From Candidatus Methanophagales archaeon (GTDB lineage: Archaea > Halobacteriota > Syntropharchaeia > Alkanophagales > Methanospirareceae): a stretch of 64,000 bases of DNA. This document shows positions 1-25,113 of the stretch, piece after piece. The stretch lies in NCBI GenBank assembly GCA_030602585.1, contig JAUVZJ010000002.1:3262-67261 (forward strand), read 5' to 3'. The translations under genes and the position numbers were made by a program. Numbering within the stretch: position 1 is the stretch's first letter; every line of letters begins with the position of its first letter. Below the pieces are notes generated by a model that had not been told where the DNA came from, made no database searches, and saw only the letters and a program-made list of their open reading frames with translations.

Positions 1-243
1 TATCATTTTTTCCGCGTCAAAACTATCGCTGCTGAGCATTCTCACCGCTAAATTGACTATCCTTACTCTTATCCCATTTCGCTCCAGATGCTCCACGATG
101 GAAAAGAAACCTATTGGATACATCTCGAATAAGGGAGTTGAAGGGACTCCATCTGCAATCGGACCGAACATTATAGGATGCTTCCGAAAATCATACACTG
201 TTGGCGCATGGAGTAAGACTAAATGTGGGCTCGTAATGCTCAT
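1..243 (-). CDS. N-terminal fragment (81 aa, runs off the window edge) of a probable B12-binding/radical-SAM-type protein: MSITSPHLVLLHAPTVYDFRK...NGIRVRIVNL
   Basis: Reverse-strand translation from ATG at 243 is open to position 1. It is absent from the ORF track because it is truncated. The VLLHAP..YDFR / PIGF..I..L...G..V motif pattern resembles B12-binding-domain radical SAM N-termini. Confidence 0.35.
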   Translation of the reverse strand, partial: MSITSPHLVLLHAPTVYDFRKHPIMFGPIADGVPSTPLFEMYPIGFFSIVEHLERNGIRVRIVNLAVRMLSSDSFDAEKMI

Positions 244-396
244 TTTCACATCAATATTCTATTAATCCTTTTAACCATAACTTAATATTGCGGTATTATT
301 ATCATGTGAACTTTCGTGGTTTTCTACCATCCTATACATAACCGTGTGACACCATGAAAATATCGAAAAATTTATATATGTTATAAAAACAGGAAA

Positions 397-406
397 TTTA
401 TAAAAA
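397..406 (+). promoter_or_regulatory. Putative archaeal TATA box (tttataaaaa) about 40 nt upstream of mvhD ATG. A second TTTATATA lies at 371-378.
   Basis: A/T-rich TATA-like octamers sit upstream of the first gene of the hdr operon. Confidence 0.3.
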
Positions 407-444
407 GTTATTGTGAAAAGAAAGAACAGGTATGGGTGAGATAA

Positions 445-873
445 ATGGAAGAAGCGAAAGAGGGATTTGAGCCAAAGATAATCGGGTTTACCTGTAATTG
501 GTGTACGTATGCCGGAGCAGACCTTGCAGGGACGTCTCGAAAGAAATACCCACCGAACGTTCGGATAATAAGGCTTATGTGCTCAGGGAGGTTAGATCCG
601 ATGTTTGTGCTCAAAGTGTTATTAAATGGTGCGGACGGTGTTTTCATTGGGGGCTGTCATCCCGGGGAGTGTCATTATATAAAGGGGAACTTCTATGCCA
701 GACGCAGGATAGCGGCATTAAGAACTATCCTGAAGCAGTTCGGGCTGGATAACCGGGTTAGATCAGAGTGGATCAGTGCATCCGAGGGAGATAAGTTTGC
801 GAGAGTAATGAAGGAGATGGCGGAAGACATAAAGAAGTTGGGACCTAATCCTATGAGGGACAAGATACTATGA
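445..873 (+). CDS. mvhD: Methyl-viologen-reducing hydrogenase delta subunit-like protein (MvhD, [2Fe-2S])
   Basis: 142 aa. The conserved block IIGFTCNWCTYAGADLAG...RLMCSGRLDP...GADGVFIGGCHPGECHY is typical of MvhD. Its stop overlaps the next start. Confidence 0.85.
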   Translation: MEEAKEGFEPKIIGFTCNWCTYAGADLAGTSRKKYPPNVRIIRLMCSGRLDPMFVLKVLLNGADGVFIGGCHPGECHYIKGNFYARRRIAALRTILKQFGLDNRVRSEWISASEGDKFARVMKEMAEDIKKLGPNPMRDKIL

Positions 874-1937
874 AAGGAACAGAGCTAAAACAAGAGGATT
901 TGGAAGGGCTATTTAAGAGATTGCTGGAGAAGAAAGCAGTGGATTGTCTGGTATTGCCGCATAAAGTGGGTAACAACGTGGCATACATGCTTGTAAAGGA
1001 CGGTGATAAGATAGAATCGCCAGCAGCGTCGGCTATTTTCGCACCTTCATTCGGAGTAAACGCAGCAAATATCGTGAAGGGATGGACGATACCGGAGAGA
1101 GTAGGAATTGTGGCAAAACCCTGTGAGATAAGGGCGGCAATAGAATTGATGAAACTAAAGCAGATGGACAAGGATAGTGTGCTTCTGATAAGTGCGGATT
1201 GTTCGGGCGCCTTCACGAATCAGGATTATGCAGACCATGCAGGGGAGATAGGTGACTGGGTGGACAGTGGAAAGATAAACGAACTGAAAGATAAAGGGAT
1301 TGCGATACGAGAAGCCTGTGCAATCTGTGAGAATCGGCTTGCAGACGTCGGGGATATTATTATTGAACGTGTGGACGGAGGAAAGGTGCTGGTTGCGGGG
1401 ATAACGGACATGGGCGTTGAGGCATTGTCAAGCACGGAACTATCGCTGGAAGATAAGGATGTGGAAAGACAGGCTGAGAAAGAGAAGATAGCAGCGGATG
1501 CAAAGAAGGAGAAAGAGGAACTGCCAAAATTAAGCAGTGTGGAAGAGTTAGAAGAGTTCCTGAGGGACTGTATAGGGTGCAAGAACTGCCGTGATATGTG
1601 TCCAGTATGTTATTGCAAGGAGTGTTTCTTTGAACAGCCCCTGGGGAAACCTGTCGGTGGAGACTTATTGAACTTAGCAGAGCTGCGGAGTGCGATAGGT
1701 GTGCCAACAAACCAACTGTTATACCATCTCACGAGGATTTATCACGTCTGCACGACGTGCGTTGGATGTGGAGCCTGTGAGGACGCATGTCCGAAGAACA
1801 TACCATTGACGAGACTATATCCAATGATTGCGGAGAAGGTGCAGGAGATATTCGAGTATGAGCCAGGGAAGGACGTTGAGGAGCCGCTACCGTTTATCAC
1901 ATACGAAGAGGAAGAGCTGGAAGAGCACTTAAGGTAA
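870..1937 (+). CDS. F420-hydrogenase/dehydrogenase beta-subunit family protein (FrhB/FdhB-like) with C-terminal 2x[4Fe-4S] ferredoxin motifs
   Basis: The N-terminal FrhB-like region carries GIVAKPCEIRA. The C-terminus has CIGCKNCRDMCP and CTTCVGCGACEDACP. The gene overlaps mvhD in an ATGA pattern. Confidence 0.7.
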   Translation: MKGTELKQEDLEGLFKRLLEKKAVDCLVLPHKVGNNVAYMLVKDGDKIESPAASAIFAPSFGVNAANIVKGWTIPERVGIVAKPCEIRAAIELMKLKQMDKDSVLLISADCSGAFTNQDYADHAGEIGDWVDSGKINELKDKGIAIREACAICENRLADVGDIIIERVDGGKVLVAGITDMGVEALSSTELSLEDKDVERQAEKEKIAADAKKEKEELPKLSSVEELEEFLRDCIGCKNCRDMCPVCYCKECFFEQPLGKPVGGDLLNLAELRSAIGVPTNQLLYHLTRIYHVCTTCVGCGACEDACPKNIPLTRLYPMIAEKVQEIFEYEPGKDVEEPLPFITYEEEELEEHLR

Positions 1938-1938
1938 A

Positions 1939-2538
1939 ATGATAAAGACCTGGGAACTGGACCTGAACTTCAGGAATGAGATATTGAACGAGCCCGGGGG
2001 AGCGCATCTTTCGGCATGTTTCCAGTGCAGCACGTGCACGATAGGATGCCCGATTGCGGAAATTGTGCCGAGTTACAATCCGAGGAAGATTATCCAGATG
2101 AGCCTGTTGGGGATGCGAGAGGAAGTTCTGTCAAACCCGGATTTGTGGATTTGTGCTATCTGTCAGACGTGCACGGCGCGATGCCCGCAAGACGTGCGGA
2201 TTAGCGATTTGCTGGCTGCGATAAGGCGAATAGCAGAGAAAGATGCGGAAGCGGGCAAGTTGAAGATAGATAGCGTTAGACCACTGTTTGAGAAGGCATT
2301 TCTGCATCAATTAGAGAAGTATGGTCGGCTCTTTGATATGGGACTTGCAATGGAATTTTACAAGGGAAAAGAAGGGGGGTCGTTCATTAAAGGGCAATTA
2401 GCAATGATGAAGGATTTCAAGGATTTCGGAATGCGGATGTTCAAGAAAGGGAAAATGGGACCGAAGGCAATGTTCCCGGAGAAAGTGAAGAAAACGGAAG
2501 AGATAAAGAAGATTTTCGAGAAGGTGGAAGGAAAATGA
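1939..2538 (+). CDS. hdrC: Heterodisulfide reductase subunit C
   Basis: Two CxxCxxCxxxCP motifs are present: CFQCSTCTIGCP and CAICQTCTARCP. Length is 199 aa and the gene sits in an hdr operon. Confidence 0.85.
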   Translation: MIKTWELDLNFRNEILNEPGGAHLSACFQCSTCTIGCPIAEIVPSYNPRKIIQMSLLGMREEVLSNPDLWICAICQTCTARCPQDVRISDLLAAIRRIAEKDAEAGKLKIDSVRPLFEKAFLHQLEKYGRLFDMGLAMEFYKGKEGGSFIKGQLAMMKDFKDFGMRMFKKGKMGPKAMFPEKVKKTEEIKKIFEKVEGK

Positions 2539-3401
2539 GCGAAAAGAAACTTGCATACCATCCTGGATGTCCATCGGCAACGACCGCGATAGAGCAGGAT
2601 ATGTCAACAAAAGCAGTATTTGAGAAATTAGGGATTGAACTGGCGGAGATGGAGGACTGGAACTGCTGCGGAGCGGCGGAAGCAGAGGACCCGATATTAG
2701 TGTATGCGTTAAATGCGAGGAATCTTGCTATTGCCGAAAAGGACGGGTTGGACATTGTAACACCGTGCAGTATATGTTATTACAATTTAGCGAGGACTGA
2801 CAAGGCGTTGAGGGAAGATGAAGGCTTACGTGCGAAAATGAGTGAGATAGATGATTCCCTCAACTATAAGGGGACGATAAAGGCGAGACACATACTGGAC
2901 GTCCTCGTAAACGGGATAGGCATGGATGAATTGTCAGGTAAGATAGAGAAGAAGGTAAACGTGAAGGTAGCGCCGTATTATGGTTGTTATATAGGGCGAC
3001 CAGGCGAGACGGCTTTTGATGACCCCGACGACCCGGATTTGATGGACAAGTTGATAGAATTGATAGGTGGAGAAAACGTTCAGTTCAGTAGCATGAAGAC
3101 GAAGTGCTGTGGAGGACCGCTGATGATGACGAGAGAGGATATAGCATTTGAGATGGCGAGGAAGGTACTGGAGTCGGCGAAGAATGCTGGTGCGGACTGT
3201 ATTGCACTTGCATGTCCACTGTGCGGTATGATGCTGGATGCGAAGCAGCCCGATATGGAAAAGAAGTTAAAAATCACAATCGAAATGCCGGTAGTTTACA
3301 TCACGCAGTTGTTGGGTCTCGCGCTTGGGATAGACTCGAATAAACTCGGTTTTAATAAAAATATCGTATCCACGAAAGAAATTCTTGGGAAGGTGATATA
3401 A
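2535..3401 (+). CDS. hdrB: Heterodisulfide reductase subunit B (two CCG domains)
   Basis: CCG-domain signatures are present: NCCGA...PCSICY and KCCGG...CPLCG. The gene overlaps hdrC by 4 nt. Confidence 0.85.
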   Translation: MSEKKLAYHPGCPSATTAIEQDMSTKAVFEKLGIELAEMEDWNCCGAAEAEDPILVYALNARNLAIAEKDGLDIVTPCSICYYNLARTDKALREDEGLRAKMSEIDDSLNYKGTIKARHILDVLVNGIGMDELSGKIEKKVNVKVAPYYGCYIGRPGETAFDDPDDPDLMDKLIELIGGENVQFSSMKTKCCGGPLMMTREDIAFEMARKVLESAKNAGADCIALACPLCGMMLDAKQPDMEKKLKITIEMPVVYITQLLGLALGIDSNKLGFNKNIVSTKEILGKVI

Positions 3402-6119
3402 ATGGGAATTGCGATTATTGGAGGAGGCGTTGCAGGGATTACGGCAGCTCTTGACCTCGCGGATTCCGGGTTCAAAGTATATTTAATAGAGAAGAATGCG
3501 GAACTCGGCGGTAAGATGGCGGAGCTTGCGGAATGCAAGACCGGGTTATCACCGAAGATAATGGAAATAGAAAATCATCCGAACATAGAACTGTTGTTGT
3601 CAAGCGAGTTAGAGAGTTTATCCGGGTCGGCGGGAGAGTTCAAGTTGAAAGTGTCGGGTAAGGAGATAGAAGCGGAGAGCGTGGTGCTGGCACCGGGATA
3701 CGATGTGTTCGATGAAATACCGAAGAGTTATGCAATAGGGCATCCGGACGTTGTCACTTCGTTAGAATTTGAAGGTATTCTCATGAATGCGACTGCGAGT
3801 GAGACTGGGGAATTGTTGCGACCATCAGATGGTAAACGAGTGAAAAAGATAGGTTTTATCCAGTGTATTGGGTCGAGATGCCAAGAGAACGAGATATGCT
3901 CGACTGCGTGCTGCGCGTACACGGCGAAAGAAGCGTGGGAAGTGAAGGAAAGATACCCTGACATGGATATTTACGTCTTCTACATGGATATAAGAGTGTT
4001 TGGCAAGGATGAGGAACTGGTGGCGGAATTAAAGGATAAATATGGCGTGAAGTACATAAGGTCAAGGGTTCCGGAGGTTATGCAGGAGAATGGTGCCCTG
4101 TCAGTTAAGTTTGAGAACTTAGAGAAAGGAGCAATAGATAAATTAGACCTCGATATGGTGGTTCTTGCAGTTGGACTTCTGCCATCGAAGACATTAAGCA
4201 GGCTTGCAGAAATAACGGGCGTGAAAACTGATAAATACGGTTATCTTGAGACGAGTATCACGAACCCGATGGAAACAAGTGTCAGCGGTGTGTTCGCATG
4301 TGGAACGGCAACGGCACCGATGAAGGTTCGTGAAAGTGTTGCGCAGGCAAGTGGTGCGGCATTAAATGCAGCGCTTCTTTCAGAGAGAACGGAGATGATT
4401 CCGGGGCAGGAGGAGCGTAAATACGTTGAAGCGGGCGAGGAGCTGAAGATAGGCGTTTTTATATGCGGTTGTGAAGGCGAGGTCGGGAAGTCTGTGGATA
4501 TACCTGCGGTTGCGGAACGAGTGAAACAACTGAAGGGCGTTGTTGATGTGAACAGCGAAACGGACACAATGGAAGCGGCGATGGAAGCGATAGAGGGTGG
4601 AATAGTGGACCAGGGGTTGAACAGGATTGTATTTGCGGGATATTCACCGAGGAAGTATGAGGATACAGCCAGGGATGCATGCGCAAAGGCAGGATTGAAT
4701 CCTTATTTACTGGAGATGGTGAACTTAAGGGAACAGTGTGCGTGTGTTTACGATAAAGGAGCAGCGACAGAAGCGGCGGTTGATCTGATACTCATGGCGG
4801 TAGAGCGAGCGCGGTATCTTGAAGAGATTCCAGTCGAGAGGTATCCGGTGATACCGAAAGCACTTGTTATCGGCGGTGGCGTGTCCGGGATGAATGCAAC
4901 GCTTGGTATTGCAGATGCAGGCTATGAAGTATATTTAGTGGAGAAAGAGCCGGAATTAGGTGGCAGTTTGAGAGAGAACATCGAGTTACAGAGTGGAGAG
5001 AAATCTTCTGACGTTTTAAAAGAATTTATTGATAGAGTACAGAGTAACGAGCGGATAAATGTATATACGAATGCGAAGGAAGAGGATGTCACGGGAAGAG
5101 CAGGTTCGTTTAAGGCGAAGATAGTCGGAGAGGGAGCAAACGAGGATATAGACTTCGGTGCTTGTATAATTGCGACCGGAACGAATGAATCCGTGCCTGA
5201 AGGTTACTATGGCTATGGTAAAGATAAAAATGTGGTAACGCAACCAGAGTTTGGGAAGATACTGGGAGGCGCATTATCCGCGAACACTGTTGTTATGATT
5301 CAAGATGTGGGACCGGATGGAGGAGTGAATCCAAAGTATAGCAGTATCGAATTGATGAATAACGTGTTAAAAGCGAAGGATAAGAACCCTGATTTGAATG
5401 TATTCGTGCTGTACCAGGACATTAAGACATACGGTAAGTGGGAAGTGCTATACAAAGAGGCAAGAGAAAAAGGCGTGATATTCCTCAGATACGATAAAGA
5501 TAAGCCGCCAAAATATGAAGATGGGATTGTTTCGGTCCACGATGTGATATTAAACGATGAGATACAGATAAAGCCTGATTTGGTGGTGCTCAGCACGCCG
5601 GCAATGCCCGCAGAGGAGAACGAGAGACTGAGCAAGATGTTCAAAATCCCTCTTAAGAAGGGGTTCTTCATGGAGGAGCAGGAACGACCAAAGATGGTAT
5701 TAACTCCGGTTGACACGGTGAACGAAGGAGTGTTCATCTGTGGTTCCGCGGTTTATCCAGCACTGATAGATGAATGCCTTGCGATGAGCAGTGCAGCAGC
5801 ATCGAGGGCATGTGTGCTGTTAGCAAAAGATTTCATCGAGACGCCTGCGGTGACTTCGGTAGTTGACGAGCTGATATGTTCAGGCTGCGGCGTGTGTGTG
5901 GATATGTGTCCGGTTGAGGCGATAGAGTTGACCGAGGAGCCGGTGCCTGTGGTTACTTTCGGCGTGGCGACGGTGATAAGCGGGACGAAGAGGGTTGCGA
6001 AGGTCAATGATGGCTGTATGGGTTGCGGAAGTTGCGCTTCTTATTGCCCTTCAGGAGCGATGTCGTTGAAGCATTTCAGGGATAAGCAGGTTTACGCTCA
6101 GTTGGATTATGCGGTGTGA
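3402..6119 (+). CDS. hdrA: HdrA-like flavoprotein, tandem architecture. It consists of an FAD-binding half-module, then an HdrA N-terminal Cys domain, a second FAD module and C-terminal 2x[4Fe-4S] ferredoxin.
   Basis: Two Rossmann GxGxxG motifs are present: IIGGGVAGITAAL and VIGGGVSGMNATL. It also has CIGSRCQEN...CSTACC, VFICGCEGEV and the C-terminal CSGCGVCVDMCP / CMGCGSCASYCP. Its start immediately follows the hdrB stop. Confidence 0.8.
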   Translation: MGIAIIGGGVAGITAALDLADSGFKVYLIEKNAELGGKMAELAECKTGLSPKIMEIENHPNIELLLSSELESLSGSAGEFKLKVSGKEIEAESVVLAPGYDVFDEIPKSYAIGHPDVVTSLEFEGILMNATASETGELLRPSDGKRVKKIGFIQCIGSRCQENEICSTACCAYTAKEAWEVKERYPDMDIYVFYMDIRVFGKDEELVAELKDKYGVKYIRSRVPEVMQENGALSVKFENLEKGAIDKLDLDMVVLAVGLLPSKTLSRLAEITGVKTDKYGYLETSITNPMETSVSGVFACGTATAPMKVRESVAQASGAALNAALLSERTEMIPGQEERKYVEAGEELKIGVFICGCEGEVGKSVDIPAVAERVKQLKGVVDVNSETDTMEAAMEAIEGGIVDQGLNRIVFAGYSPRKYEDTARDACAKAGLNPYLLEMVNLREQCACVYDKGAATEAAVDLILMAVERARYLEEIPVERYPVIPKALVIGGGVSGMNATLGIADAGYEVYLVEKEPELGGSLRENIELQSGEKSSDVLKEFIDRVQSNERINVYTNAKEEDVTGRAGSFKAKIVGEGANEDIDFGACIIATGTNESVPEGYYGYGKDKNVVTQPEFGKILGGALSANTVVMIQDVGPDGGVNPKYSSIELMNNVLKAKDKNPDLNVFVLYQDIKTYGKWEVLYKEAREKGVIFLRYDKDKPPKYEDGIVSVHDVILNDEIQIKPDLVVLSTPAMPAEENERLSKMFKIPLKKGFFMEEQERPKMVLTPVDTVNEGVFICGSAVYPALIDECLAMSSAAASRACVLLAKDFIETPAVTSVVDELICSGCGVCVDMCPVEAIELTEEPVPVVTFGVATVISGTKRVAKVNDGCMGCGSCASYCPSGAMSLKHFRDKQVYAQLDYAV

Positions 6120-6130
6120 GACATAGTCCA

Positions 6131-6150
6131 CTGGGTTTTTCTTTTTTATT
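6131..6150 (+). terminator. Oligo-T tract (tgggtttttcttttttatt) after hdrA
   Basis: A T-rich run lies directly downstream of the operon stop. Archaeal terminators are oligo-T. Confidence 0.3.
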
Positions 6151-6270
6151 AATGTCGGATGTGTTTTTATGTATCATTTAACGGACCGAAGGTTCCAAGG
6201 TCGCTGTTTGAATGAGAAATAGACAATGGTGTTGACAGATGTCTAAAGCACAAAGGCTTAAAAGGGTTGA

Positions 6271-7965
6271 TTGCTCAAAAGTTTTATAAAGAGAGAAATA
6301 TCATTTAGATATAAAATGAGGATCGAAGCGTTCACCATAAAAAACTATAGAAGTATTAAAGAACTTAAAATCGAAAATCTAAATCCCGTTAACGTATTTT
6401 TTGGTAAAAATAATGTAGGTAAGTCAAACATACTCCGGGGTTTACATCAGGCATTTTTCTGCCTTAAAAACGATAGAATATTTTTGCCCGACACTATGTT
6501 TTATAATAGGGATATATACAAACCCATTGAAATCGCAGTTGAACTGATTTTGGAAGAGGACTTTTACGATATTGAAAAAGTCAATAGCGCTTTAAAGGGG
6601 GGAATAGATAAAATTCATTCGGCGATTGCCTACGACCAAGAAATATTCATGGATAGTATAAAGGAAGTAGAGCAGTTTATAGAAGAATCGGAGTCATTTA
6701 AACCTTTGAAAAAGGTGGGTTTAAAAATGCATCTTGATTACAACGAAGGAACAACCGATATTGGCGTTTCAATTGAAGATTTAGAATCTGATTACAGGTT
6801 TGATTATGGAAAATACCGAATTTTGTATGAAAAGTTAAAACGCACTATCTTGGGAGGAATAAATAACAAAATAGAACGATTAAGTGATTCGTTTTTATCC
6901 CAATTATCTCCTTTGGAAATTGATGCGGGGGAGGAGGTAAGGGAGATCCTCTTCTATCTCTTGAAGCGTCGCGTTCGTGGTATAGGTGGCATAGAATATA
7001 GGCATTACATGGAACGTCTAAGAAAATATTTAAAAGATATACAAGATACCGACAAAAAAGAAGAAGTTTTGTCCCTATTAGAGCAATATGAAGAAATACT
7101 TATAGACTCAGAAGGTCTACTGACAGAACCCTTTTCCACGACTTTCCGCATAGTAAAAGAATACTTCGATAAAATATCCGATAATTTTATATTGATTCCT
7201 AACAAGGAATATTTCCCGAAAGGTCCTTTCACTGAAAAGGGCGGAGAACAAATAGAAATCTTTGAAATCGAGAGATTTGAGGACAAATTGCTTTCGCTCA
7301 TTGAATCGCCAAGCAAAAAGGAACGAACACTTATTCAAAACTTTAATGATATTTGGAGCAGATCATACGGAGATTTGGGAGAACTCGAAATTAGAAAGTT
7401 TCGGGAAGAAGTGTTTGCAATTTTTGATACGGGCTTTACTGCACTTCCCATTGAAGATCAAGGTCTGGGTATGCAAGACCTGTTTCTTTATCTCGCACAC
7501 ATGCTTCTGTTCGATACTGCTATCATAGCAATTGAAGAACCAGAGGGAGGTTTGTCCACAGAAAACCAAATAACTTTGCATAATATCATCGAAGATGTTT
7601 ACTCAGGAAGCGATAAGCAAATTTTCATCTCTTCGCACTCTAAAGAATTTGAAACACCAAGCAGTTATATCATTGAGATGGGCAAAGGAGGAACAAAAGA
7701 AATCAGTAGAAGGGAAAAGGAAAAAGAATATGAAGAAAAGATTGATGGGATATTAATCGGTAGGAGACTGGAGGAGGAAAAAGAGCAGTATGAAGCTCTG
7801 CTCAGAGAAGTTACCGAACGGGAAATAACCCTCGACATACTGAATCATATCAGCAAACTGGGGGATGAAGAAAAAGTTGATGCGCAGAAGATTTCTAATG
7901 AGTTAGGCTATAAAAAAGAAAAAGTTGAAGAAGTCTTGAGGGAAATCGCAGGGAGAAGAATATGA
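6271..7965 (+). CDS. ABC-type (AAA_15/AAA_21, RecF/SMC-like) ATPase with a roughly 340-aa insertion between the Walker A and signature/Walker B halves, plus a C-terminal winged-helix. The start is more likely at Met16 (6316).
   Basis: The N-terminus IEAFTIKNYRSIKELKIENLNPVNVFFGKNNVGKSNIL matches the RecF-like head with Walker A. The C-terminal block DQGLGMQDLFLYLAHMLLFDTAIIAIEEPEGGLS...IFISSHS matches the signature, Walker B, D-loop and H-loop. The last 60 aa or so (ITLDILNHISKLGDEEKVDAQKISNELGY..VEEVLREIA) look like a wHTH. Composition is AT-rich, unlike the flanks. Confidence 0.6.
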   Translation: MLKSFIKREISFRYKMRIEAFTIKNYRSIKELKIENLNPVNVFFGKNNVGKSNILRGLHQAFFCLKNDRIFLPDTMFYNRDIYKPIEIAVELILEEDFYDIEKVNSALKGGIDKIHSAIAYDQEIFMDSIKEVEQFIEESESFKPLKKVGLKMHLDYNEGTTDIGVSIEDLESDYRFDYGKYRILYEKLKRTILGGINNKIERLSDSFLSQLSPLEIDAGEEVREILFYLLKRRVRGIGGIEYRHYMERLRKYLKDIQDTDKKEEVLSLLEQYEEILIDSEGLLTEPFSTTFRIVKEYFDKISDNFILIPNKEYFPKGPFTEKGGEQIEIFEIERFEDKLLSLIESPSKKERTLIQNFNDIWSRSYGDLGELEIRKFREEVFAIFDTGFTALPIEDQGLGMQDLFLYLAHMLLFDTAIIAIEEPEGGLSTENQITLHNIIEDVYSGSDKQIFISSHSKEFETPSSYIIEMGKGGTKEISRREKEKEYEEKIDGILIGRRLEEEKEQYEALLREVTEREITLDILNHISKLGDEEKVDAQKISNELGYKKEKVEEVLREIAGRRI

Positions 7966-8399
7966 GTGAACCGCCTCTTATAAGCGATATAAAAAATATC
8001 GCACAAGAGATGACAGAAGAAATATTAAGAGAACAACGAAAAACCAGAAGCGAGATTAGCGAAAAGATAAATGGAAGTCGTTCGGAGATTATTACCGTAA
8101 TATTTTCAGAAAGTAGAAAAATAAGGCAAGAAATTGGGTATCAAACTATGATGCTAAAAATATTAGGGGATAATCTGAGCGAAATACAATTTGATGAAGA
8201 AACCGGGATTTCTTCCAAGATCGAAGTAAGTGTCGGAGCGGAGATTTTCGGAACGGGAGCAAAGTGGATTTTGGATATTGACGTTGCTAAAGTGAGTTAT
8301 TCTGATTTGCTTCGGGCTATACAAGAGTATCCCGGGATTCCGCCTAAGTTAAAGAAAAAAGCGAAATCAAAACTTGAAGGAGTCGCAAATTCGGGCTAA
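7962..8399 (+). CDS. Hypothetical 145-aa protein, translationally coupled (ATGA overlap) to the upstream ATPase. It has no Cys or His.
   Basis: The ORF start overlaps the ATPase stop and shares its AT-rich codon usage. I recognise no family. It lacks HNH or Toprim motifs. Confidence 0.45.
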   Translation: MSEPPLISDIKNIAQEMTEEILREQRKTRSEISEKINGSRSEIITVIFSESRKIRQEIGYQTMMLKILGDNLSEIQFDEETGISSKIEVSVGAEIFGTGAKWILDIDVAKVSYSDLLRAIQEYPGIPPKLKKKAKSKLEGVANSG

Positions 8400-8569
8400 T
8401 TATACAGAATCGCCTTGCTATTTTTGTTTGACCACCCGCTGCAATTCTACCCTTTTTCTCCCAGTTTACATTCCATTGTTTCAATCAACCTTTTCTCTGA
8501 AGCAAAGTAAAAAGCATTTCAATAAACACTTTTTAGAAAATGGGTTTAATTTAGAATGTGATATGAAAA

Positions 8570-9877
8570 ATGAACATGCTAATCAAGAACCGGAAATACG
8601 CAACCGAAATAACCGCAGATGATGACGGAGAACGTGTGAGCATAGCAGGCTGGGTGCATGAGAAACGGGATTTAGGCGGTGTCTTTTTCCTTATCGTGCG
8701 AGACCTTAAAGGCGTTGCTCAGGTTACACTGCACAAGGGCGAAGGTGAGCAGCAGGAACTGCTTGGACGGATGAAAAAAGTACCTCGTGAATCAGTAGTG
8801 GCGATAGAAGGTGAAGTAAAGAGCGAGAAAAAGGCGCCGAATGGATATGAGATATTACCCAAACGAATGGAAGTTCTAAGCGAGGCATCGCAAGTTTTAC
8901 CGCTGGATACCACAGGAAAAGTTGGTGCAGAGCTGGATACGAGGTTGGATGCGAGATTCATGGACCTGAGAACCGAGAGAACAAAGCAGATATTTATTAT
9001 TCGCAGTCGTGTTCTCAAGGCGATGAGAGATTTCTTCGACGAGCGCGGTTTTATAGAAATAAACACGTCAAAGATAGTAAGTGCAGCGACGGAAGGCGGC
9101 ACTGCTCTATTCCCTATTTCTTATTTTGAACGAGAAGCGTTCTTAAATCAGAGCCCACAGCTTTACAAGCAGATGCTCATGGCTTCTGGCTTTGACCGCG
9201 TGTATGAAATAGCGCCGATATTCAGGGCTGAGGAGCATGACACCACGAAACACCTTAACGAAGCTACTTCGGTGGATATAGAAGTTGCATTTGTATCTGA
9301 TGATGAGGTAATGAAGATATTAGAGGAGCTTATTGCATTTGTATATTCAAAGGTTGTGGATTATCCGGGCTTAGCCAAGCTGAATTTGAACCTGGAAGTT
9401 CCAAAGATGCCATTCAGGCGTATAACTTATGATGAAGCGATAGAGCTACTTTCCGGGGCAGGTGAGCAGATAGAATGGGGCGAAGACCTCGGCACTTCTG
9501 CTGAACATACGCTGGGCGGGATAATAGGCGAGCTTTATTTCATCACGGACTGGCCATGTGCGATAAAACCGTTTTATGCACAGCCGGTTGCCGGGGATAA
9601 AGATATTTGCGATGCGTTTGACCTGATGCATCCAAGATTAGAGCTTGCATCAGGCTCGCAGCGTGTTCATTCATACGAGCTGCTGAAGAAGAACATAGAA
9701 TCAAAAGGACTGAGTGCGGATAATTTTGAGTTTTATCTCGACGCTTTTCGTTTTGGTATGCCGCCGCATGCGGGCTGGGGGCTTGGCGTTGAAAGACTGT
9801 TGATGAGCATGCTGGAGATAGAAAACATAAGGGAAGTGGTACTTTTCCCTCGTGATAGGAGAAGGCTGGCACCGTGA
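8570..9877 (+). CDS. aspS: Aspartyl-tRNA synthetase, archaeal type
   Basis: 435 aa. An N-terminal OB anticodon-binding region is followed by class II motifs (FRAEE...; GLGVERLLM). Confidence 0.9.
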   Translation: MNMLIKNRKYATEITADDDGERVSIAGWVHEKRDLGGVFFLIVRDLKGVAQVTLHKGEGEQQELLGRMKKVPRESVVAIEGEVKSEKKAPNGYEILPKRMEVLSEASQVLPLDTTGKVGAELDTRLDARFMDLRTERTKQIFIIRSRVLKAMRDFFDERGFIEINTSKIVSAATEGGTALFPISYFEREAFLNQSPQLYKQMLMASGFDRVYEIAPIFRAEEHDTTKHLNEATSVDIEVAFVSDDEVMKILEELIAFVYSKVVDYPGLAKLNLNLEVPKMPFRRITYDEAIELLSGAGEQIEWGEDLGTSAEHTLGGIIGELYFITDWPCAIKPFYAQPVAGDKDICDAFDLMHPRLELASGSQRVHSYELLKKNIESKGLSADNFEFYLDAFRFGMPPHAGWGLGVERLLMSMLEIENIREVVLFPRDRRRLAP

Positions 9878-9905
9878 TGTGTATGCGGAGAAAAAAAGCA
9901 AAAAA

Positions 9906-9948: not shown

Positions 9949-11562
9949 ATGGCAGCTGAAACTGAAACAGAGGTAGAAGTGGAGAAGAAAAAGTCGGGGA
10001 TTGGCAGGGAAGAAACGACAAGGCATGTGATGGAATCAATAAAGGGCGCGGTTGAAAATTCTTTCTTAGAGAAAATCGAGGAGAAGGAGGTGGATGTCGT
10101 TCCAGAGGCGTTAGTGATAGGTGCAGGAATAGCGGGTATGTATGCCGCATTGGATATCGCAGATGCGGGGTTCAAAGTGCATTTGGTGGAGAGAACGCCT
10201 ACTGTCGGAGGACACATGGCACAGCTTGATAAAACTTTCCCAACGCTTGATTGTTCTGCTTGTATTCTAACGCCGAGAATGGTGGACGTGGGCGGGCATC
10301 CGAACATAAATCTACTGAGTTACTCAGAGGTAGAATCGGTAGAAGGCTCGGTTGGGAATTTCAAAGTGAAGGTGAAGAAGAAACCGAGGTACGTAATTGA
10401 GGAAACATGCACCGGATGTGCTTTATGTGAGGAAGAATGCAGATTCAAATACAAATGGCCAGATGAATTTAATGTGAATCTTGGAAAAAAGAGTTCGATA
10501 TTTAGGCCGTTTCCGCAAGCAATTCCCGCTGTTTATTGTGTTGACCCTGAGTATTGTCAGATGGTAAAAAAGGGAAAGTGTGGAAAAGCAACGATTGAAA
10601 GCACCAGAGAAGCAATTAAAAAGAGGAAGAGTGGAGAAGAAGTATCCAAAGATGAAGCCCCTCCCTGTGTTCTGATATGTGAACCAAACTGTATAGATTT
10701 TGACATGAAAGAGGAGATAGTTGAACTGACCGTGGGAACGATTATAGTTGCGTCCGGTTTTGACATCATAGACCCGAAAGAGTCGCCAGAATATAAGTAT
10801 GGTGTATATCCGAACGTAATTCACGGCTTAGAATTTGAACGCTACTCTTCTGCCAGTGGTCCCACGTTAGGCAGGATATTAGTAAATGATAAGGAGCCGA
10901 AGGACGTGGTTTTCATATCTTGTGTTGGGTCGAGGAATAAGCAGACCGGGTATGAATACTGCTCTCGTGTATGCTGTATGTATTTAGCGAAACATGCACA
11001 TTTGCTTGAGGAGAAGGTTCCTGATTGCAACATAACAGTGCTATATCAAGATGTAAGGGCATTTGGGAAAGGCTATGAGGAGTTTTATTCAAGGGTGAAA
11101 GGAGAGGGCATTAGTTACCGCAGGGGACTTGCAGCCGATATATACAAAAAACCGGGCAGTGATAGGCTGGTGGTGAGGGCGGAAGATACGATGCTTGGCG
11201 AGCCTTATGAGCTCGAAGCAGACCTTGTAGTGCTTGGAGTGGGACTGAAACCGAGTGATGGCAGTGAAAAGTTATTTAAAATGCTTGGAATCACAGAAAC
11301 GGTGGACAAATTTGCAAAAGAGGCACATCCAAAGGTCAGACCGGTGGATACGGATATAGAAGGACTTTTTGTGACCGGATGTGCTCAAGGTCCAAAGGAC
11401 ATTCCAGACAGTGTAGCCCAGGGCAAAGCAGCGGCTGCTGCTTCTCTTTCTCTTTTAGCACCGGGCAAAGCGAAAATACGATCTTCAGTAGCAGAGATGG
11501 ACGAAGAAGTATGTGTAGGGTATAAGTCGTTAAGGGAAATGGCGGAAAAAATAGGAGCTTAG
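9949..11562 (+). CDS. hdrA: HdrA-like flavoprotein with FAD domain and inserted ferredoxin domain. It lacks the N-terminal Cys domain and the C-terminal 2x[4Fe-4S] domain.
   Basis: Motifs present: VIGAGIAGMYAALDIADAGFKVHLVE, DKTFPTLDCSACILTPRM, CTGCALCEEEC and ISCVGSRNK...CSRVCCMY. Confidence 0.8.
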   Translation: MAAETETEVEVEKKKSGIGREETTRHVMESIKGAVENSFLEKIEEKEVDVVPEALVIGAGIAGMYAALDIADAGFKVHLVERTPTVGGHMAQLDKTFPTLDCSACILTPRMVDVGGHPNINLLSYSEVESVEGSVGNFKVKVKKKPRYVIEETCTGCALCEEECRFKYKWPDEFNVNLGKKSSIFRPFPQAIPAVYCVDPEYCQMVKKGKCGKATIESTREAIKKRKSGEEVSKDEAPPCVLICEPNCIDFDMKEEIVELTVGTIIVASGFDIIDPKESPEYKYGVYPNVIHGLEFERYSSASGPTLGRILVNDKEPKDVVFISCVGSRNKQTGYEYCSRVCCMYLAKHAHLLEEKVPDCNITVLYQDVRAFGKGYEEFYSRVKGEGISYRRGLAADIYKKPGSDRLVVRAEDTMLGEPYELEADLVVLGVGLKPSDGSEKLFKMLGITETVDKFAKEAHPKVRPVDTDIEGLFVTGCAQGPKDIPDSVAQGKAAAAASLSLLAPGKAKIRSSVAEMDEEVCVGYKSLREMAEKIGA

Positions 11563-11581: not shown

Positions 11582-13771
11582 ATGGTAGAGGAAGGATATG
11601 ATTATACAAAAATCCCGATGACGGGGTCGGTAGAAGGAGTTGCGGCTGATGCGCCGGAGGAAGCACCGAGGATTGGCATTTATATATGCCATTGCGGAAT
11701 AAACATAAAGATGGTATTGAACGTAGTGGACATTATGAATTATGCGGCGATGTTGCCGAACGTTGCTCTTGTCCGGCACTATATATTTGCGTGTTCAGAC
11801 CCGGGGCAATCGCTAATAAAAGGGGACCTTAAAGCGGGTAAAGTAAACAGGGTGATAGTAGCTGCCTGTTCTCCAAGGATGCACGAGCTAACGTTCAGGA
11901 AAACTTGTAGTGGTGAAGGTCTTAATCCTTACTACTTCGAGATGGCGAATATAAGAGAGCATTGTAGCTGGCCACACGTGGATTATAAGGAAGGAGCGAT
12001 GGAGAAGGCGAAGGAATTGATAAGGAGTGCGGTTGCAAGAAGTTCATTATTAGAGCGAATTGAGGAGAAGGTGGTGGAAGTCAATCCGGAAGCATTGATA
12101 ATAGGAGCGGGCATAACCGGGATGTATGCGGCACTGGATATAGCGAATGCCGGCTATAAGGTACATTTAGTTGAGAAGAAACCTTCTATTGGTGGGCACG
12201 TGGCGCAATTGAACAAGACGTTCCCAACACTGGATACTACCGCTTCTCTTTTAACGCCGAGAATGATAGACATAGGAGCACATCCGAACGTAAATCTGAT
12301 GGCATATTCAGAGGTTGAAGATATAGAAGGCTACGTTGGTAATTACCAGGCGAAAGTGAAGAGGAAGCCGAGATACGTGGATGAAGCAAAATGCACGGGA
12401 TGTGGCTTATGTGCCGAGGCATGCCCGGTGAAAGATATATCAAATGAATTCGACGAGGGGTTGAGTAAGAGAAGTGCCATTTACATACCTTTCCCGTTTG
12501 CAGTTCCACCTGTTTATACGGTTGACGCAGAACATTGCTCGCTGCTAAAAGAGGGTAAATGCGGTAATGCGACACTTGAGGGTGTTAAAGAAGGTAAAGA
12601 AGTTCCACCTTGTATGGCGGCATGCAGTCCGGGAGCGATAGATTTCGGGCAAATAGAGGAGACAGACGAGTTGACCGTGGGCACAATTATAGTTGCAACC
12701 GGTTATGACATCGTGGACCCGACAGTGTCGGCAGAATACAAGTATGGTGTATATCCAAATGTAATTACAGGATTAGAGTTTGAGAGGTTGTCATCACCGA
12801 GTGGTCCTACGGGTGGAAAGATAGAGATAAACGGAAAAGAGCCGAAGGACGTTGTTTTTATAAGTTGTGTCGGGTCGAGGAATACGCAAGTGGGTAATGA
12901 ATACTGCTCTCGTGTATGCTGTATGTATATAGCGAAACAGGCGCATTTAGTAAAGGATAAACTGCCGGACGCAAACGTAACAGTGTGCTATCAAGATGTG
13001 AGAGCGTTTGGTAAAGGCTTCGAGGAGTTTTACGGTGATACGAAGAAGGAGGGCGTTTTCTATTTACGAGGACTTCCGGGAGAGATATACAAAAAACCGG
13101 GCAGTGATAGAGTGGTAGTGCGTGGCGAGAATACACTGCTCGGGGAGCCGTATGAGAAAGAAGCGGACCTTGTGGTGCTTGGCGTGGGAATGAAACCCAA
13201 CGAGGGCGTGTGGGACATAGTAAATATGCTGAAACTATCACAATCTCCAGATCAGTTCTTATTAGAAGCACATCTCAAGCTCAGACCAGTTGACACGGCA
13301 ACAGATGGCGTATATATTGCGGGATGCTGTGCAGGTCCAAAGGATATACCAGAAAGTATATATCAGGGAAAAGCAGCGGCTTCTGGTTCTCTCGTCTATT
13401 TAGTTTTGAGGAAGGCAAAATTGGAGCCTACAATATCAGAGATAAACGCGGAAGTTTGCATTGGATGCCGGTGTTGCGAACAGGTATGTCCTTATGGTGC
13501 GCTTGTGTTTGACGAGGAGATAAGAGTAATGACGGTAAACGAAGCGGTTTGCAAGGGCTGTGGCGGTTGTAATTCGATATGCCCTTCGGGAGCAGCGACA
13601 ATGAAGCATTTCCGCGACAGACAGGTATATGCGCAGATAGAGGCGTTGACGCAGATAGGAATGCCGATGGTTGAGATTGCGGGGGCTGAAGCAGTAGCAG
13701 AAGCATCCGCAGGCACAGAAACAGAAACAGGTGAAGCAGAGAGTGCAGAAGTGGAGCAGAGTGCGGAGTGA
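11582..13771 (+). CDS. hdrA: Heterodisulfide reductase subunit A, full architecture (N-terminal Cys domain, FAD domain, inserted ferredoxin, C-terminal 2x[4Fe-4S])
   Basis: Motifs present: IGIYICHCGINI, IIGAGITGMYAALDIANAGYKVHLVE, CTGCGLCAEACP, CVGSRN..CSRVCCMY, CIGCRCCEQVCP and CKGCGGCNSICP. The usual TLDCSxC motif reads TLDTTAS here. Confidence 0.85.
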   Translation: MVEEGYDYTKIPMTGSVEGVAADAPEEAPRIGIYICHCGINIKMVLNVVDIMNYAAMLPNVALVRHYIFACSDPGQSLIKGDLKAGKVNRVIVAACSPRMHELTFRKTCSGEGLNPYYFEMANIREHCSWPHVDYKEGAMEKAKELIRSAVARSSLLERIEEKVVEVNPEALIIGAGITGMYAALDIANAGYKVHLVEKKPSIGGHVAQLNKTFPTLDTTASLLTPRMIDIGAHPNVNLMAYSEVEDIEGYVGNYQAKVKRKPRYVDEAKCTGCGLCAEACPVKDISNEFDEGLSKRSAIYIPFPFAVPPVYTVDAEHCSLLKEGKCGNATLEGVKEGKEVPPCMAACSPGAIDFGQIEETDELTVGTIIVATGYDIVDPTVSAEYKYGVYPNVITGLEFERLSSPSGPTGGKIEINGKEPKDVVFISCVGSRNTQVGNEYCSRVCCMYIAKQAHLVKDKLPDANVTVCYQDVRAFGKGFEEFYGDTKKEGVFYLRGLPGEIYKKPGSDRVVVRGENTLLGEPYEKEADLVVLGVGMKPNEGVWDIVNMLKLSQSPDQFLLEAHLKLRPVDTATDGVYIAGCCAGPKDIPESIYQGKAAASGSLVYLVLRKAKLEPTISEINAEVCIGCRCCEQVCPYGALVFDEEIRVMTVNEAVCKGCGGCNSICPSGAATMKHFRDRQVYAQIEALTQIGMPMVEIAGAEAVAEASAGTETETGEAESAEVEQSAE

Positions 13772-16898: not shown

Positions 16899-17165
16899 AT
16901 GAAAAGGTCAAAATCAATAGTAGTGAAAGAAAAGATGGAAAAGAGAATAAAGGCAAAGTTCTTGGAAGGTATTTTTAAGCCCTTAGAAAAGGTGGAACTC
17001 GAAGAGGGGAAAGAAGTTATCGTGACAATAAAAGAGGTTCCTAAAGAAACAAAGGATGCTTTTGAGAAAGCAGCCGGGAGCTGGAAGGGTTTGGTTGATA
17101 CAGAGCGGTTAATCAAAGACATTTACGAGAGTCGAAGAATTAGAGCTCCTGAGGTTAAATTATGA
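16899..17165 (+). CDS. vapB: Type II antitoxin (archaeal AF2212/DUF104-like VapB-type)
   Basis: An 88-aa basic protein (KAKFLEGIFKPLEKVELEEGKEVIVTIKEV). Its stop overlaps the start of the PIN gene in an ATGA pattern. Confidence 0.55.
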   Translation: MKRSKSIVVKEKMEKRIKAKFLEGIFKPLEKVELEEGKEVIVTIKEVPKETKDAFEKAAGSWKGLVDTERLIKDIYESRRIRAPEVKL

Positions 17166-17545
17166 AATATCTCCTTGATACAAGCTGGGTTATTCATTAT
17201 CTACGAGGAGAGGAAAGAGTTGTAAAGAAACTTCTTTCATTAAGAGAAGAAGGATTAGCAGCGAGTATGATCACCCTGGCTGAATTATATGAAGGCGTTT
17301 TCAGGTCTATTAATCCTGTTTTAGCTGAAGAATCACTAAAAGATTTCTTGACGGGAATTTCAATTCTGGGGATGGATGAAGAAGTATGCAAGATTTTTGG
17401 AAGAGAAAGAGCGAGATTGAGAAAGTTAGGAAAACCAATTGGTGATCTTGACCTTCTAATTGCTTCAACCTGTCTTCGTTACGATCTAACACTTCTCACT
17501 GATGACACAAGAGAGTTTGAGAGGGTGGAGAATTTAAAAATTTAA
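17162..17545 (+). CDS. vapC: PIN-domain ribonuclease toxin
   Basis: 127 aa. The N-terminal LLDTSWVIHYL (the first Asp) and the later acidic residues (ITLAELYEG; DLDLLIAS; LLTDD) fit the PIN fold. Confidence 0.8.
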   Translation: MKYLLDTSWVIHYLRGEERVVKKLLSLREEGLAASMITLAELYEGVFRSINPVLAEESLKDFLTGISILGMDEEVCKIFGRERARLRKLGKPIGDLDLLIASTCLRYDLTLLTDDTREFERVENLKI

Positions 17546-17679
17546 GTGAGTGTATCAGTGCAAACTTCCGGTAGATATAGGAGTTGTTCCGATATAAGTT
17601 CCAAGATGTGAACTTAACAAGTCATTTAGGGGGGTAATATGCCATTCCATAATTTTTTATTTTTGCTATATTTATTTGA

Positions 17680-18246
17680 GTGACAAATCAGAATAAAAAT
17701 ACCATGTCCGATGAAGAATACACAAAACTGGAATATTGTATCAAGTATAAAAGTAGTGAGATAAGCAATGAAGATGTTATTCCACTTGTTAAACAGACAA
17801 TTGAAGAGGCAAAAAAGAAAAATCCTGAGAAGGCAAAAGCTCTCGATAACATAGAAATAACAAAAGGGCCGAGTGCTCATATGTTTGATGTGGACTTCGA
17901 CACAATTCTGATAATCGTAGTTGTTCTTAAAGTCTCGCATAGCATATTAAAACCCATAATACTCGAAACATGGCATGAGATAGTGATTCCACTATTGAAA
18001 AGAAAACTGAATATAGAAACGCATGAAGACAATTTAAAAAAGATGGAAGAAAAAATGGAAGAGCCAAAAAAAGAAATAACAAAAGAAATAGCAGATGAGT
18101 TTGACGAAGAAAAAAGAAAAGAAATAGCAGATGAGCTTGACGAAATATTAAAACAAACAATAAAAGATGAATCATTAAGCAAAGATGTCAGAAAATTAGC
18201 AAACGAGATGTTGAATGCAAGTCCTATGAAAAAAGAAAAAACTTAA
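17680..18246 (+). CDS. Hypothetical K/E-rich protein with one hydrophobic segment. A start at the internal Met (MSDEEY) is possible.
   Basis: This is the only long ORF in the AT-rich patch upstream of the HEPN gene. Its C-terminus is low-complexity (EIADEFDEEKRKEIADELDE). Confidence 0.3.
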   Translation: MTNQNKNTMSDEEYTKLEYCIKYKSSEISNEDVIPLVKQTIEEAKKKNPEKAKALDNIEITKGPSAHMFDVDFDTILIIVVVLKVSHSILKPIILETWHEIVIPLLKRKLNIETHEDNLKKMEEKMEEPKKEITKEIADEFDEEKRKEIADELDEILKQTIKDESLSKDVRKLANEMLNASPMKKEKT

Positions 18247-18324
18247 GGTAGAATGTGCAATTGCATTGCACATAAATATTTTCGTTTCTATTATATCAAT
18301 TTCTAATACAGGTTATCGGTTGCC

Positions 18325-25110: not shown

Positions 25111-25113
25111 GGA

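Follow-up and report, generated by a model that had tools for sequence, protein, structure and literature searches.

Introduction

To our knowledge, the outputs described so far for ABC-ATPase immunity, as represented by PARIS, Septu, Gabija, OLD and retron effectors, are nucleases. In PARIS, for example, the ABC ATPase AriA is accompanied by AriB, a DUF4435/TOPRIM nuclease. The ANME-1 (Methanophagales) lineage, which is key to marine methane oxidation, is uncultured, and its virus-host biology is known from metagenomes only. Previous work showed that ANME-1 genomes contain variable hotspots enriched in defence genes and that toxin-antitoxin (TA) operons dominate their structural variants (PMC13385816); neither aspS nor the gene pair described below is mentioned in that report. 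Here, we analysed this pair, an ABC-type ATPase gene and a small partner gene, in a 64,000-nt stretch of Methanophagales DNA (hereafter, the window). Coordinates are those of the window, and all features given are on the + strand.

Results

The pair is flanked on the left by an hdrA-type gene of core metabolism (3402..6119; 905 aa, Pyr_redox_2/Fer4, GC3 0.51) and on the right by aspS, encoding aspartyl-tRNA synthetase (8570..9877; tRNA-synt_2), which is the conserved anchor of a variable slot. These domain matches confirm the two-gene island between hdrA and aspS that a first-pass annotation had proposed. The upstream ORF could start at TTG 6271 or at ATG 6316 and ends at 7965. Every homologue begins with M[KR]IE, and ATG 6316 is preceded at a distance of 26-34 nt by a TTTTATAAA box; we therefore take ATG 6316 as the start, so that the gene (6316..7965) encodes 549 aa, i.e., an ABC-type AAA_15/AAA_21 ATPase that lacks a nuclease domain. 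Read against the general geometry of archaeal promoters, TTTTATAAA (6282..6290) resembles a TATA box, and its position suggests that ATPase and partner share a short-leader or leaderless transcript. The partner gene (7962..8399) encodes a soluble protein of 145 aa; as first described, and as the two ORFs bear out, it overlaps the ATPase gene by the ATGA at 7962..7965, where the ATPase stop and the partner start are joined in a translational-coupling arrangement. Oligo-T tracts 3' of the partner stop codon (8420..8460) likely mark the end of the transcription unit, as read from the sequence.

By Pfam profile, the ATPase is a member of the AAA_15/AAA_21 (OLD-type ABC ATPase) class, with matches to AAA_15 (6.6e-21; 75.8 bits against a cut-off of 32.1) over residues 1-444 and to AAA_21 (1.6e-13; 51.8 against 27), in agreement with the earlier suggestion that it shares its class with anti-phage systems. 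The four motifs initially quoted are all present and nearly fully invariant among 64 homologues. Walker A (GKNNVGKS, residues 30-37; 6403..6426) has invariant G30 and N32-N38 and a nearly invariant K31, and the ABC signature (QGLGMQD, residues 382-388; 7459..7479) has invariant Q382, G383, G385, Q387 and D388. Walker B and the D-loop (AIIAIEEPEGGLS, residues 403-414; 7522..7557) include invariant E407, E408, P409 and E410, the EEPE form being typical of AAA_15/OLD-type ATPases, and S440 and H441 are invariant in the H-loop (SHS, residues 440-442; 7633..7641). An insert of 340 aa had also been reported; this figure is the distance in sequence from Walker A to the signature, and the structural insertion in the AF2 model is ~205 aa (residues 86-289; 6571..7182), made up of a stalk and a tip, both helical, and a sheet of three strands. 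Variability within the protein peaks at residues 166-245, where the majority-residue frequency is 0.41 versus 0.79-0.85 in the head lobes. The head itself is structurally like those of SMC/Rad50, PtuA and AriA. Were the pair a housekeeping SMC/RecF/Rad50-like module for DNA repair or chromosome maintenance, the short insertion would be hard to accommodate, as would the lack of a long coiled coil, hinge or zinc hook, the single Cys in the protein, and NCBIfam scores of 28 against a cut-off of 172 for RecF and 21 against 700 for Rad50.

Past the H-loop, only ~100 residues follow, which the AF2 model folds into a helix and a three-helix motif. The long helix (residues 466-513; 7711..7854), in which Y472, E473, I476 and L480 are invariant, joins the head to the terminal motif (residues ~504-549; 7825..7962), for which a winged helix had been predicted. 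The three-helix part of that prediction fits the AF2 model and is suggested by weak matches, all of them below curated cut-offs; a wing is lacking, as the protein ends 1-5 residues past helix 3 in all homologues and no beta-hairpin follows. When 24 members were scanned individually against Pfam, RPA_C was matched in 13 (best 6e-6), and Rrf2, TrmB, MarR_2, z-alpha and MCM_WH_arc gave other weak matches; none of the 24 reached a Pfam curated cut-off. A PDB profile match to ADAR1 Z-alpha (E about 0.01) extends over helices 1-3. The recurrence of such matches, weak as they are, would fit a regulatory or stress-response module, in which the ATPase binds DNA or protein by way of the motif and, together with the coiled-coil partner, controls transcription or a process unrelated to viruses, and so would the absence of an effector enzyme and the housekeeping genes that surround the bacterial copies. 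However, the wing is missing, and RPA_C, the family that it resembles most, is a domain for protein interaction. Considering also that presence of the pair is sporadic, with empty sites in close relatives, that its composition is foreign in every host and that the alternative cargo of its slot is of restriction type (see below), we regard a regulatory role as quite unlikely.

The partner is modelled by AF2 as a long N-terminal helix (residues 7-74), an amphipathic beta-hairpin (residues 85-110, with a GTGAKW turn) and a basic helical tail (charge +3.8), at low confidence (pLDDT 65, and below 50 in the hairpin). Its pI is 5.4, its dN/dS 0.08-0.48, and no TM segment was found (maximum KD19 0.88). 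As noted from the outset, it contains neither Cys nor His (0 of each) and resembles no recognised protein: searches gave nothing at E <= 1 in PADLOC and chance-level matches only in Pfam, NCBIfam and PDB (best E 0.01 in Pfam and 0.039 in NCBIfam, below cut-off), and profiles of the partner and of its C-terminal module gave nothing significant in PDB, Pfam or PHROGs. A LacI-headpiece-like stretch (E about 0.25) was discarded as chance. Since the model is of low confidence, a TM segment is lacking and a fold search returned generic coiled coils only, any mode of action proposed for the partner is a guess. No enzymatic effector is recognisable in the pair. A profile search of 1.84 billion representatives showed that the C-terminal module (residues ~60-145; 8139..8396) is found again at the C-terminal end of proteins with HEAT/TPR repeats (P0256, P0257, P0260) and as a small ORF adjoining HEAT-repeat genes (L186, L188).

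Among the 10 distinct complete loci, the partner lies directly downstream of the ATPase in all but one. The -4 overlap is retained in eight orthologous loci and a 1-nt spacer occurs in four. The two proteins diverge in step, with a correlation of r = 0.89 between their pairwise identities, at a dN/dS of 0.1-0.5. The genes have thus stayed side by side and translationally coupled while diverging together under purifying selection. A compact, translationally coupled unit of this kind, with a composition foreign everywhere, a patchy, cross-domain distribution and PIN and HEPN islets in the same window, could be a selfish addiction module resembling TA systems, as would fit the prominence of TA operons among ANME-1 structural variants. 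One product, perhaps the partner, would be toxic and the other would neutralise it; the cassette would play no part against viruses and would be maintained through post-segregational killing or as a passenger in a recombination hotspot. This possibility overlaps our main reading, since abortive infection is the function of many TA-like modules. Against it, a 549-aa ABC ATPase with all catalytic motifs conserved is not a typical antitoxin, and one MAG (L092) keeps the ATPase without the partner, so that the ATPase does not depend on the partner as its antitoxin, although the converse, a partner on its own beside an unrelated gene, was seen in no locus. We consider such a module unlikely.

The pair has a GC content of ~0.36-0.38, versus 0.47 in the flanks (ATPase and partner, 0.362 and 0.377; GC3, 0.35 and 0.33). 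Relative to the window, in which mean GC is 0.43 and mean GC3 0.43 (sd 0.066), it lies at z of about -1.2 to -1.5, i.e., the deviation is genuine but moderate rather than extreme. Islets at 17-19.4 kb and 23.5-25.5 kb of the window lie below the pair. In 13 of 13 loci compared, the pair is 5-17 GC points under its host. The low GC and A/T-ending codons had previously been ascribed to horizontal acquisition; the foreign composition in all 13 loci supports this view, but the deviation is moderate and the acquisition does not appear to be recent in this lineage. Several ANME-1-type species have the pair upstream of aspS, and its divergence follows the same rank order as that of aspS, so within ANME-1 it looks long-resident and largely vertically inherited. 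The dS of the ATPase is lower than that of aspS, which might hint at recent transfer among ANME-1, but the rank order is unchanged and AT-biased codon usage confounds NG86.

Orthologues were found in ~12 of 185,579 species genomes, namely those of ANME-1 and relatives and MAGs of Anaerolineae, Ignavibacteria and Planctomycetota, at 54-77% identity (54-64% for the bacterial copies). Homologues and synteny place the window itself with ANME-1. Outside ANME-1, the neighbourhoods are unrelated and consist of ordinary housekeeping genes, not defence islands. A comparison of ANME-1-type loci anchored on aspS showed that the slot upstream of aspS varies among relatives. The gap between a DUF87 gene and aspS is empty in L113, L117 and L118 and holds the pair in L115, L006 and L085; in L017, the ATPase gene begins right after DUF87 and is cut by the contig end after 51 aa. 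Elsewhere, the gap holds GmrSD (PADLOC HEC-05, 2.5e-188), TM-Mrr_cat (8.5e-31) or a TIR-like effector (8e-16), and some gaps carry low-GC genes of no known identity. DUF87 (HerA-like) was considered as a third component and rejected; since it also stands beside empty sites and unrelated cargo, it is a core flank gene. It has no tblastn match in the window and is absent from the annotated neighbours in bacterial loci.

These data bear directly on the housekeeping alternative, which had been named at the start as the scenario that would overturn a defence reading. Three ANME-1-type loci with an empty gap and others with unrelated cargo, a distribution scattered over two domains, a GC content below that of the host throughout and a dN/dS 2-4 times that of the adjacent aspS all argue against it. 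Empty sites and distribution largely rule it out, and together with the structural evidence above they make it extremely unlikely. The pair is accessory, horizontally spread and not housekeeping.

Both slot borders are rearranged in the window: an hdr operon replaces DUF87 at the left one, and the aspS stop is exactly where homology to contig L001 ceases. L109 carries fragments of IS elements and transposases upstream of aspS. These observations, along with the low GC, would be expected if the pair were a remnant of an integrated plasmid or provirus, such as a module for partition, replication control or exclusion, stranded beside aspS. However, neither an integrase nor a tRNA, an att-like repeat or any further element gene was found at the borders (the nearest tRNAs, the only two of the window, lie ~38 and ~51 kb off), the cassette always moves as just these two genes, and no orthologue of either gene was found among 2.9 million viral contigs (IMG/VR), making such an origin very unlikely. 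For the question of defence, the absence from viral contigs is neutral, neither supporting nor excluding it.

Discussion

On balance, we lean toward the view that the pair is an antiviral or anti-MGE cassette of the 'ABC ATPase plus separate effector' type, like PARIS, Septu or AbiL, in a variable ANME-1 (Methanophagales) slot rich in defence genes. Because the aspS-side slot is empty or holds restriction-type genes in relatives, the pair is probably a variant of that ATPase-plus-effector arrangement. A defence or abortive-infection role would be consistent with the class of the ATPase and with the location of the pair; this role, the assignment of sensor and effector and the way in which the partner acts are inferred. 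The apparent long residence in ANME-1 is a point against defence, being less typical of defence genes with fast turnover.

If the cassette does act in this manner, the ATPase might self-associate through its insertion domain and ATP-dependent engagement of the heads, holding the co-translated 145-aa partner bound and inactive. The fast-evolving insertion tip, the wingless winged-helix motif or both could then sense a viral protein or nucleic acid, whereupon ATP binding or hydrolysis would free or rearrange the partner. Having no catalytic residues, the partner would presumably work without enzymatic activity, its long helix and amphipathic hairpin perhaps driving oligomerisation; alternatively, it may recruit another factor. 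A bolder reading, to which we give only a modest chance, is that the helix, hairpin and basic tail form a new, non-enzymatic immune output domain plugged into two unrelated sensor scaffolds, the ABC ATPase and the HEAT/TPR proteins. Such a module could oligomerise when triggered, form pores or filaments, or be a universal adaptor; if so, it would define an unrecognised archaeal and bacterial defence family that has moved between domains in anoxic sediments.

A non-catalytic, 145-aa partner of no known fold would represent a novel type of effector or else a novel means by which an ATPase sensor is linked to host factors. The DUF87/hdr-[cargo]-aspS arrangement also gives ANME-1 a concrete variable slot whose uncharacterised low-GC cassettes could be mined for other systems, and the Anaerolineae, Ignavibacteria and Planctomycetota copies point to exchange of a putative immune module between archaea and bacteria.

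As initially proposed, no named system fits the pair: PADLOC matches are limited to ATPase components (e.g., AriA, PDC-M38A, AbiLi and GajA) and leave the partner unmatched. Unlike AriB of PARIS, the partner has no DUF4435/TOPRIM, and the ATPase is larger than AriA, with its C-terminal helix and winged-helix-type motif. The AriA model aligns over positions 1-371 of 373, much as Pfam AAA_15 does over 1-372 of 374, so the AriA match looks class-level rather than specific. The HNH partner of Septu and retron-associated PtuA-PtuB has no counterpart here; with NCBIfam PtuA the ATPase scores 16.2 (cut-off 500), and no reverse transcriptase or ncRNA was found nearby. The original statement that the ATPase has neither a Toprim nor an HNH partner holds. 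The pair also lacks the combination by which Lamassu and Wadjet are recognised, i.e., a long coiled-coil SMC ATPase with a kleisin-like subunit and an effector (LmuA or JetD). From SMC, Rad50, RecF and RecN it differs in the coiled-coil, hinge and zinc-hook features already described, in having no Mre11, kleisin or RecO/R partner, and in its accessory distribution and foreign composition.

OLD and Gabija GajA share the EEPE Walker B with the ATPase, and many GajA and Old models match its N- and C-lobes, but here no OLD-like_TOPRIM follows the ATPase and no GajB-like helicase is adjacent, whereas OLD relatives from the same searches carry PF20469. The nearest other relatives are OLD-TOPRIM proteins, one of which (L034) has a fused OLD-type TOPRIM (1.4e-19). 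Also among the nearest non-orthologous relatives are ATPases of overlapping AAA_15 and PIN pairs in Caldilineaceae and Anaerolineales MAGs (L020, L023, L033), with an identity of 31-49% across residues 1-~465. These pairs have the same gene order and translational coupling as ours, but the C-terminal helix and winged-helix-type motif are missing from their ATPases and their partner is a PIN RNase, clear in L020 (1.1e-7) and weak in L023 and L033. In the nearest AAA_15 relatives, therefore, a PIN gene or a fused TOPRIM holds the position of the 145-aa partner, which suggests that this position is the effector slot.

Results and Discussion

The ATPase and partner genes lie on the same strand between an hdrA-type gene (3402-6119) and aspS (8570-9877). 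Three hdrA-type paralogues (3402-6119, 9949-11562, 11582-13771) bracket the pair and aspS in the window, and the succession of aspS and two hdrA-like genes is seen again in ANME-1-type metagenome loci L108, L109, L111, L112, and L115. As read from the ORFs, the ATPase gene could begin at 6271 (TTG) or 6316 (ATG) and ends at 7965; since all homologues open with M[KR]IE and the ATG has a TTTTATAAA box 26-34 nt 5' of it, 6316 was taken as the start, giving a protein of 549 aa. Its stop codon and the start of the partner gene (7962-8399, 145 aa) share an ATGA overlap. Given the oligo-T tracts after the stop codons of hdrA and the partner gene, the pair looks like a transcription unit of its own.

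The ATPase gene has a GC of 0.362 and the partner gene one of 0.377 (window mean 0.43), with GC3 at 0.351 and 0.329, respectively (window mean 0.43, sd 0.066). The low-GC island described by the first-pass annotation is thus real in that the pair falls under the window mean, but the departure is modest (z about -1.2 to -1.5) and two further islets have lower GC; the contrast appears sharper because the adjoining hdr genes are GC3-rich (0.51-0.59). An islet at 17100-19450 (GC 0.30-0.37) carries a PIN-domain gene (17162-17545; Pfam, 1.3e-15), a 180-aa ORF without family (17704-18246), and, on the minus strand, a HEPN-domain gene (18559-19422; 1.9e-8), and looks like another accessory TA/defence-type patch. 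A second low-GC patch (23500-25550) holds a 400-aa ORF without Pfam match (23511-24713) and a retropepsin-like aspartyl protease (25123-25533), and a 515-aa minus-strand ORF (52703-54250; GC 0.38) matches no Pfam family.

With aspS as an anchor across 80 metagenome loci, about 20 of them ANME-1-type at at least 75% identity, the slot 5' of aspS, i.e., the interval from a core DUF87 (HerA-like) gene, or an hdr gene in the window, to aspS, is a variable hotspot. It is empty (85-188 bp) in L113, L117, and L118, contains the pair in L115, L006, and L085/L086 and likely in L017, whose contig ends 51 aa into the ATPase, and contains the ATPase only in L092. Other loci carry GmrSD (L123; PF03235, 3.4e-32; PADLOC HEC-05, 2.5e-188), a TM-Mrr_cat protein (L110; 8.5e-31), a TIR/deoxyribosyltransferase-like protein (L116; PADLOC Effector TIR, 8e-16), a 268-aa protein with a very weak bGSDM match (L120 3952-4758; 8e-4), or low-GC genes without family (L108, L112, L124). 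Cargo GC is 0.34-0.40 throughout, compared with 0.45-0.51 in the flanks. The family-less cargo comprises three genes in L108 (1901-3901; 211, 198, and 259 aa) and four in L112 (1102-3519), and small proteins without family lie beside the Mrr-type gene of L110 (2202-4239); these cargoes and that of L120 may be further uncharacterised systems. Defence-enriched variable hotspots, often affecting hdrA, have been described in ANME-1 (PMC13385816), and the aspS-adjoining locus is unmentioned in that paper. The pair is a putative defence candidate, well supported by its location.

Both borders of the slot appear recombinogenic, since an hdr gene occupies DUF87's place on the left in the window lineage and, independently, in L007, and since homology between the window and Logan contig L001 stops exactly at the aspS stop codon. 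L001 equals window 1-8600 save two mismatches, and across aspS (window 8600-9878; L001 9956-11234) identity is about 96% overall and 92-98% in individual 200-nt blocks; past aspS, L001 carries TatA, hydantoinase, and radical-SAM genes where the window has hdrA-like genes. Recombination between strains at the right border of the slot, or else a chimeric assembly, would account for this break. Locus L008 (1-5450), from a 'Syntrophoarchaeum' bin, bears, in this order, the three slot genes of L108, a 39-aa aspS 5' fragment, DUF87, and the pair, which looks like tandem duplication or recombination of two hotspot alleles; because its DUF87 is 85-86% identical to Methanophagales ones, the bin assignment may be wrong.

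At 90% identity, the ATPase forms ~100 clusters and the partner ~128, and named members are nearly all from ANME-1/Methanophagales (GZfos fosmids included) or 'Syntrophoarchaeum', with a few from MAGs labelled Anaerolineae or Planctomycetota. Orthologues (54-77% identity) occur in only ~12 of 185,579 species genomes, Ignavibacteria and Sedimentisphaerales MAGs among them. The pair is AT-richer than the remainder of the locus in 13 of 13 loci, for instance in an Anaerolineae contig (GC 0.39 vs. 0.57) and in ANME-1 (0.34 vs. 0.43-0.48). A conserved housekeeping SMC/RecF-like module, the reading against which the first-pass annotation had set its proposal of a defence pair, is essentially excluded by the empty slots, the sparse distribution, composition, and sub-threshold equivalog scores. 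Within ANME-1, ATPase divergence ranks as aspS divergence, with lower dS and a dN/dS 2-4 times higher, codon bias confounding the dS comparison; these values fit a pair long resident in ANME-1 with faster protein evolution. IMG/VR yielded an orthologue of neither protein, and the borders of the pair showed no att-like repeats, tRNA, or integrase.

The partner lies directly 3' of the ATPase in all complete loci save L009/L092, with a -4 overlap in eight and a 1-nt spacer in four. Pairwise identities of the two proteins are correlated (r = 0.89), and dN/dS is 0.1-0.5 for both. In L092 (= L009; 4350-7258), a MAG encodes a 537-aa ATPase (70% identity) and no partner, the ATPase stop overlapping the aspS start. 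In a Sedimentisphaerales MAG (L014 10001-11639), the ATPase match falls in two frames (residues 1-485 and 494-548), indicating either a frameshifted pseudogene or an assembly indel error. In the Anaerolineae locus L089, a 142-aa Asp_protease_2 gene (2338-2766) sits immediately 3' of the pair, which may be a chance parallel to the aspartyl protease in the window's second low-GC patch.

The assignment to the AAA_21-type class was borne out: Pfam matched AAA_15 (6.6e-21, residues 1-444) and AAA_21, and none of 64 homologues departs from Walker A (G30-S37), the signature (Q382-D388), Walker B (EEPE, 407-410), or H441. The protein should therefore be an active, head-dimerising ABC ATPase, as predicted from these motifs. 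Its AlphaFold2 model (pLDDT 81.6, pTM 0.73) runs from an N-lobe through an insertion of ~205 aa (86-289; helical stalk, three-stranded sheet, and helical tip) to a C-lobe, a 48-residue helix (466-513), and two short terminal helices. The head lobes are the best-conserved part (0.79-0.85) and the insertion tip the least conserved (166-245; 0.41). The last 45 residues gave weak, recurrent winged-helix family matches, led by RPA_C, which matched 13 of 24 members (best 6e-6) and was followed by Rrf2, TrmB, MarR_2, z-alpha, and MCM_WH_arc, and a PDB profile search aligned ADAR1 Z-alpha (E about 0.01) to helices 1-3. Of the C-terminal winged helix proposed earlier, at most the three-helix part would be present; the wing is absent, because the chain ends after helix 3 in all homologues.

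The partner, reported at first pass to match no recognised family and to lack Cys and His, indeed has 0 Cys and 0 His, found nothing at E <= 1 in PADLOC, and gave only sub-threshold, chance-level matches in Pfam, NCBIfam, PHROGs, and the PDB. Its maximum KD19 of 0.88 marks it as soluble, and it is acidic except for its C-terminal tail (+3.8). In a weak AF2 model (pLDDT 65, pTM 0.28), residues 7-74 form a helix and 85-110 a beta-hairpin (pLDDT below 50), with helices again in 113-144; in the hairpin, polar and apolar residues alternate strictly about a conserved GTGAKW turn. Searched against 1.84 billion cluster representatives, its profile retrieved just 24 proteins, three of which are large proteins carrying partner residues ~60-141 C-terminally (P0256 and P0257, HEAT repeats; P0260, TPR). 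A second profile search added small proteins (28-36% identity), two of them directly 3' of HEAT-repeat genes (L186, L188). As these fusions and neighbouring ORFs show, the partner's C-terminal half (residues ~60-145) is a portable module that goes with two or more types of large scaffold. The separate HEAT/TPR-plus-module family is either fused (P0256, P0257, P0260) or split into adjoining genes (L186 3-2741; L188 3262-6318); L188 has the order NRDD+HEAT protein, 204-aa coiled-coil protein, 105-aa module protein, and a type I R-M system lies near P0256.

In the next-closest AAA_15 proteins, the partner's position is taken by an overlapping PIN gene (L020, 1.1e-7; L023 and L033, weak) or by a fused OLD-type TOPRIM (L034, L046). 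The site 3' or C-terminal of the ATPase core therefore appears to be an exchangeable output slot, a view also backed by module re-use on HEAT/TPR proteins, the hypervariable insertion tip, and the partner-less L092 ATPase. The most economical model, going beyond anatomy, coupling, and location, would be PARIS/Septu-like: the ATPase oligomer would hold the partner sequestered and, on detecting a viral cue, release or activate it, and the partner would then act non-enzymatically or as an adaptor. A pure addiction module, a regulatory module, or a stranded MGE function is possible but less probable.

The ATPase class is well known, and candidates that pair an AAA_15 ATPase with an unknown protein are numerous; the partner and its module are undescribed in the libraries searched. 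Through the pair, an archaeal hotspot is newly mapped and a portable module without known family comes to light. Structure searches, Foldseek included, matched the ATPase head alone (matches include PtuA 18.0, retron ATPases about 16.8, AriA 16.7, GajA 15.4, OLD 15.2), and Pfam, PADLOC, and NCBIfam found no TOPRIM, HNH, or other nuclease in the ATPase. As the first-pass annotation had held, the architecture falls outside the named systems: PARIS, Septu, Gabija, OLD, AbiL, and Lamassu each differ from the pair in a defining partner or domain.
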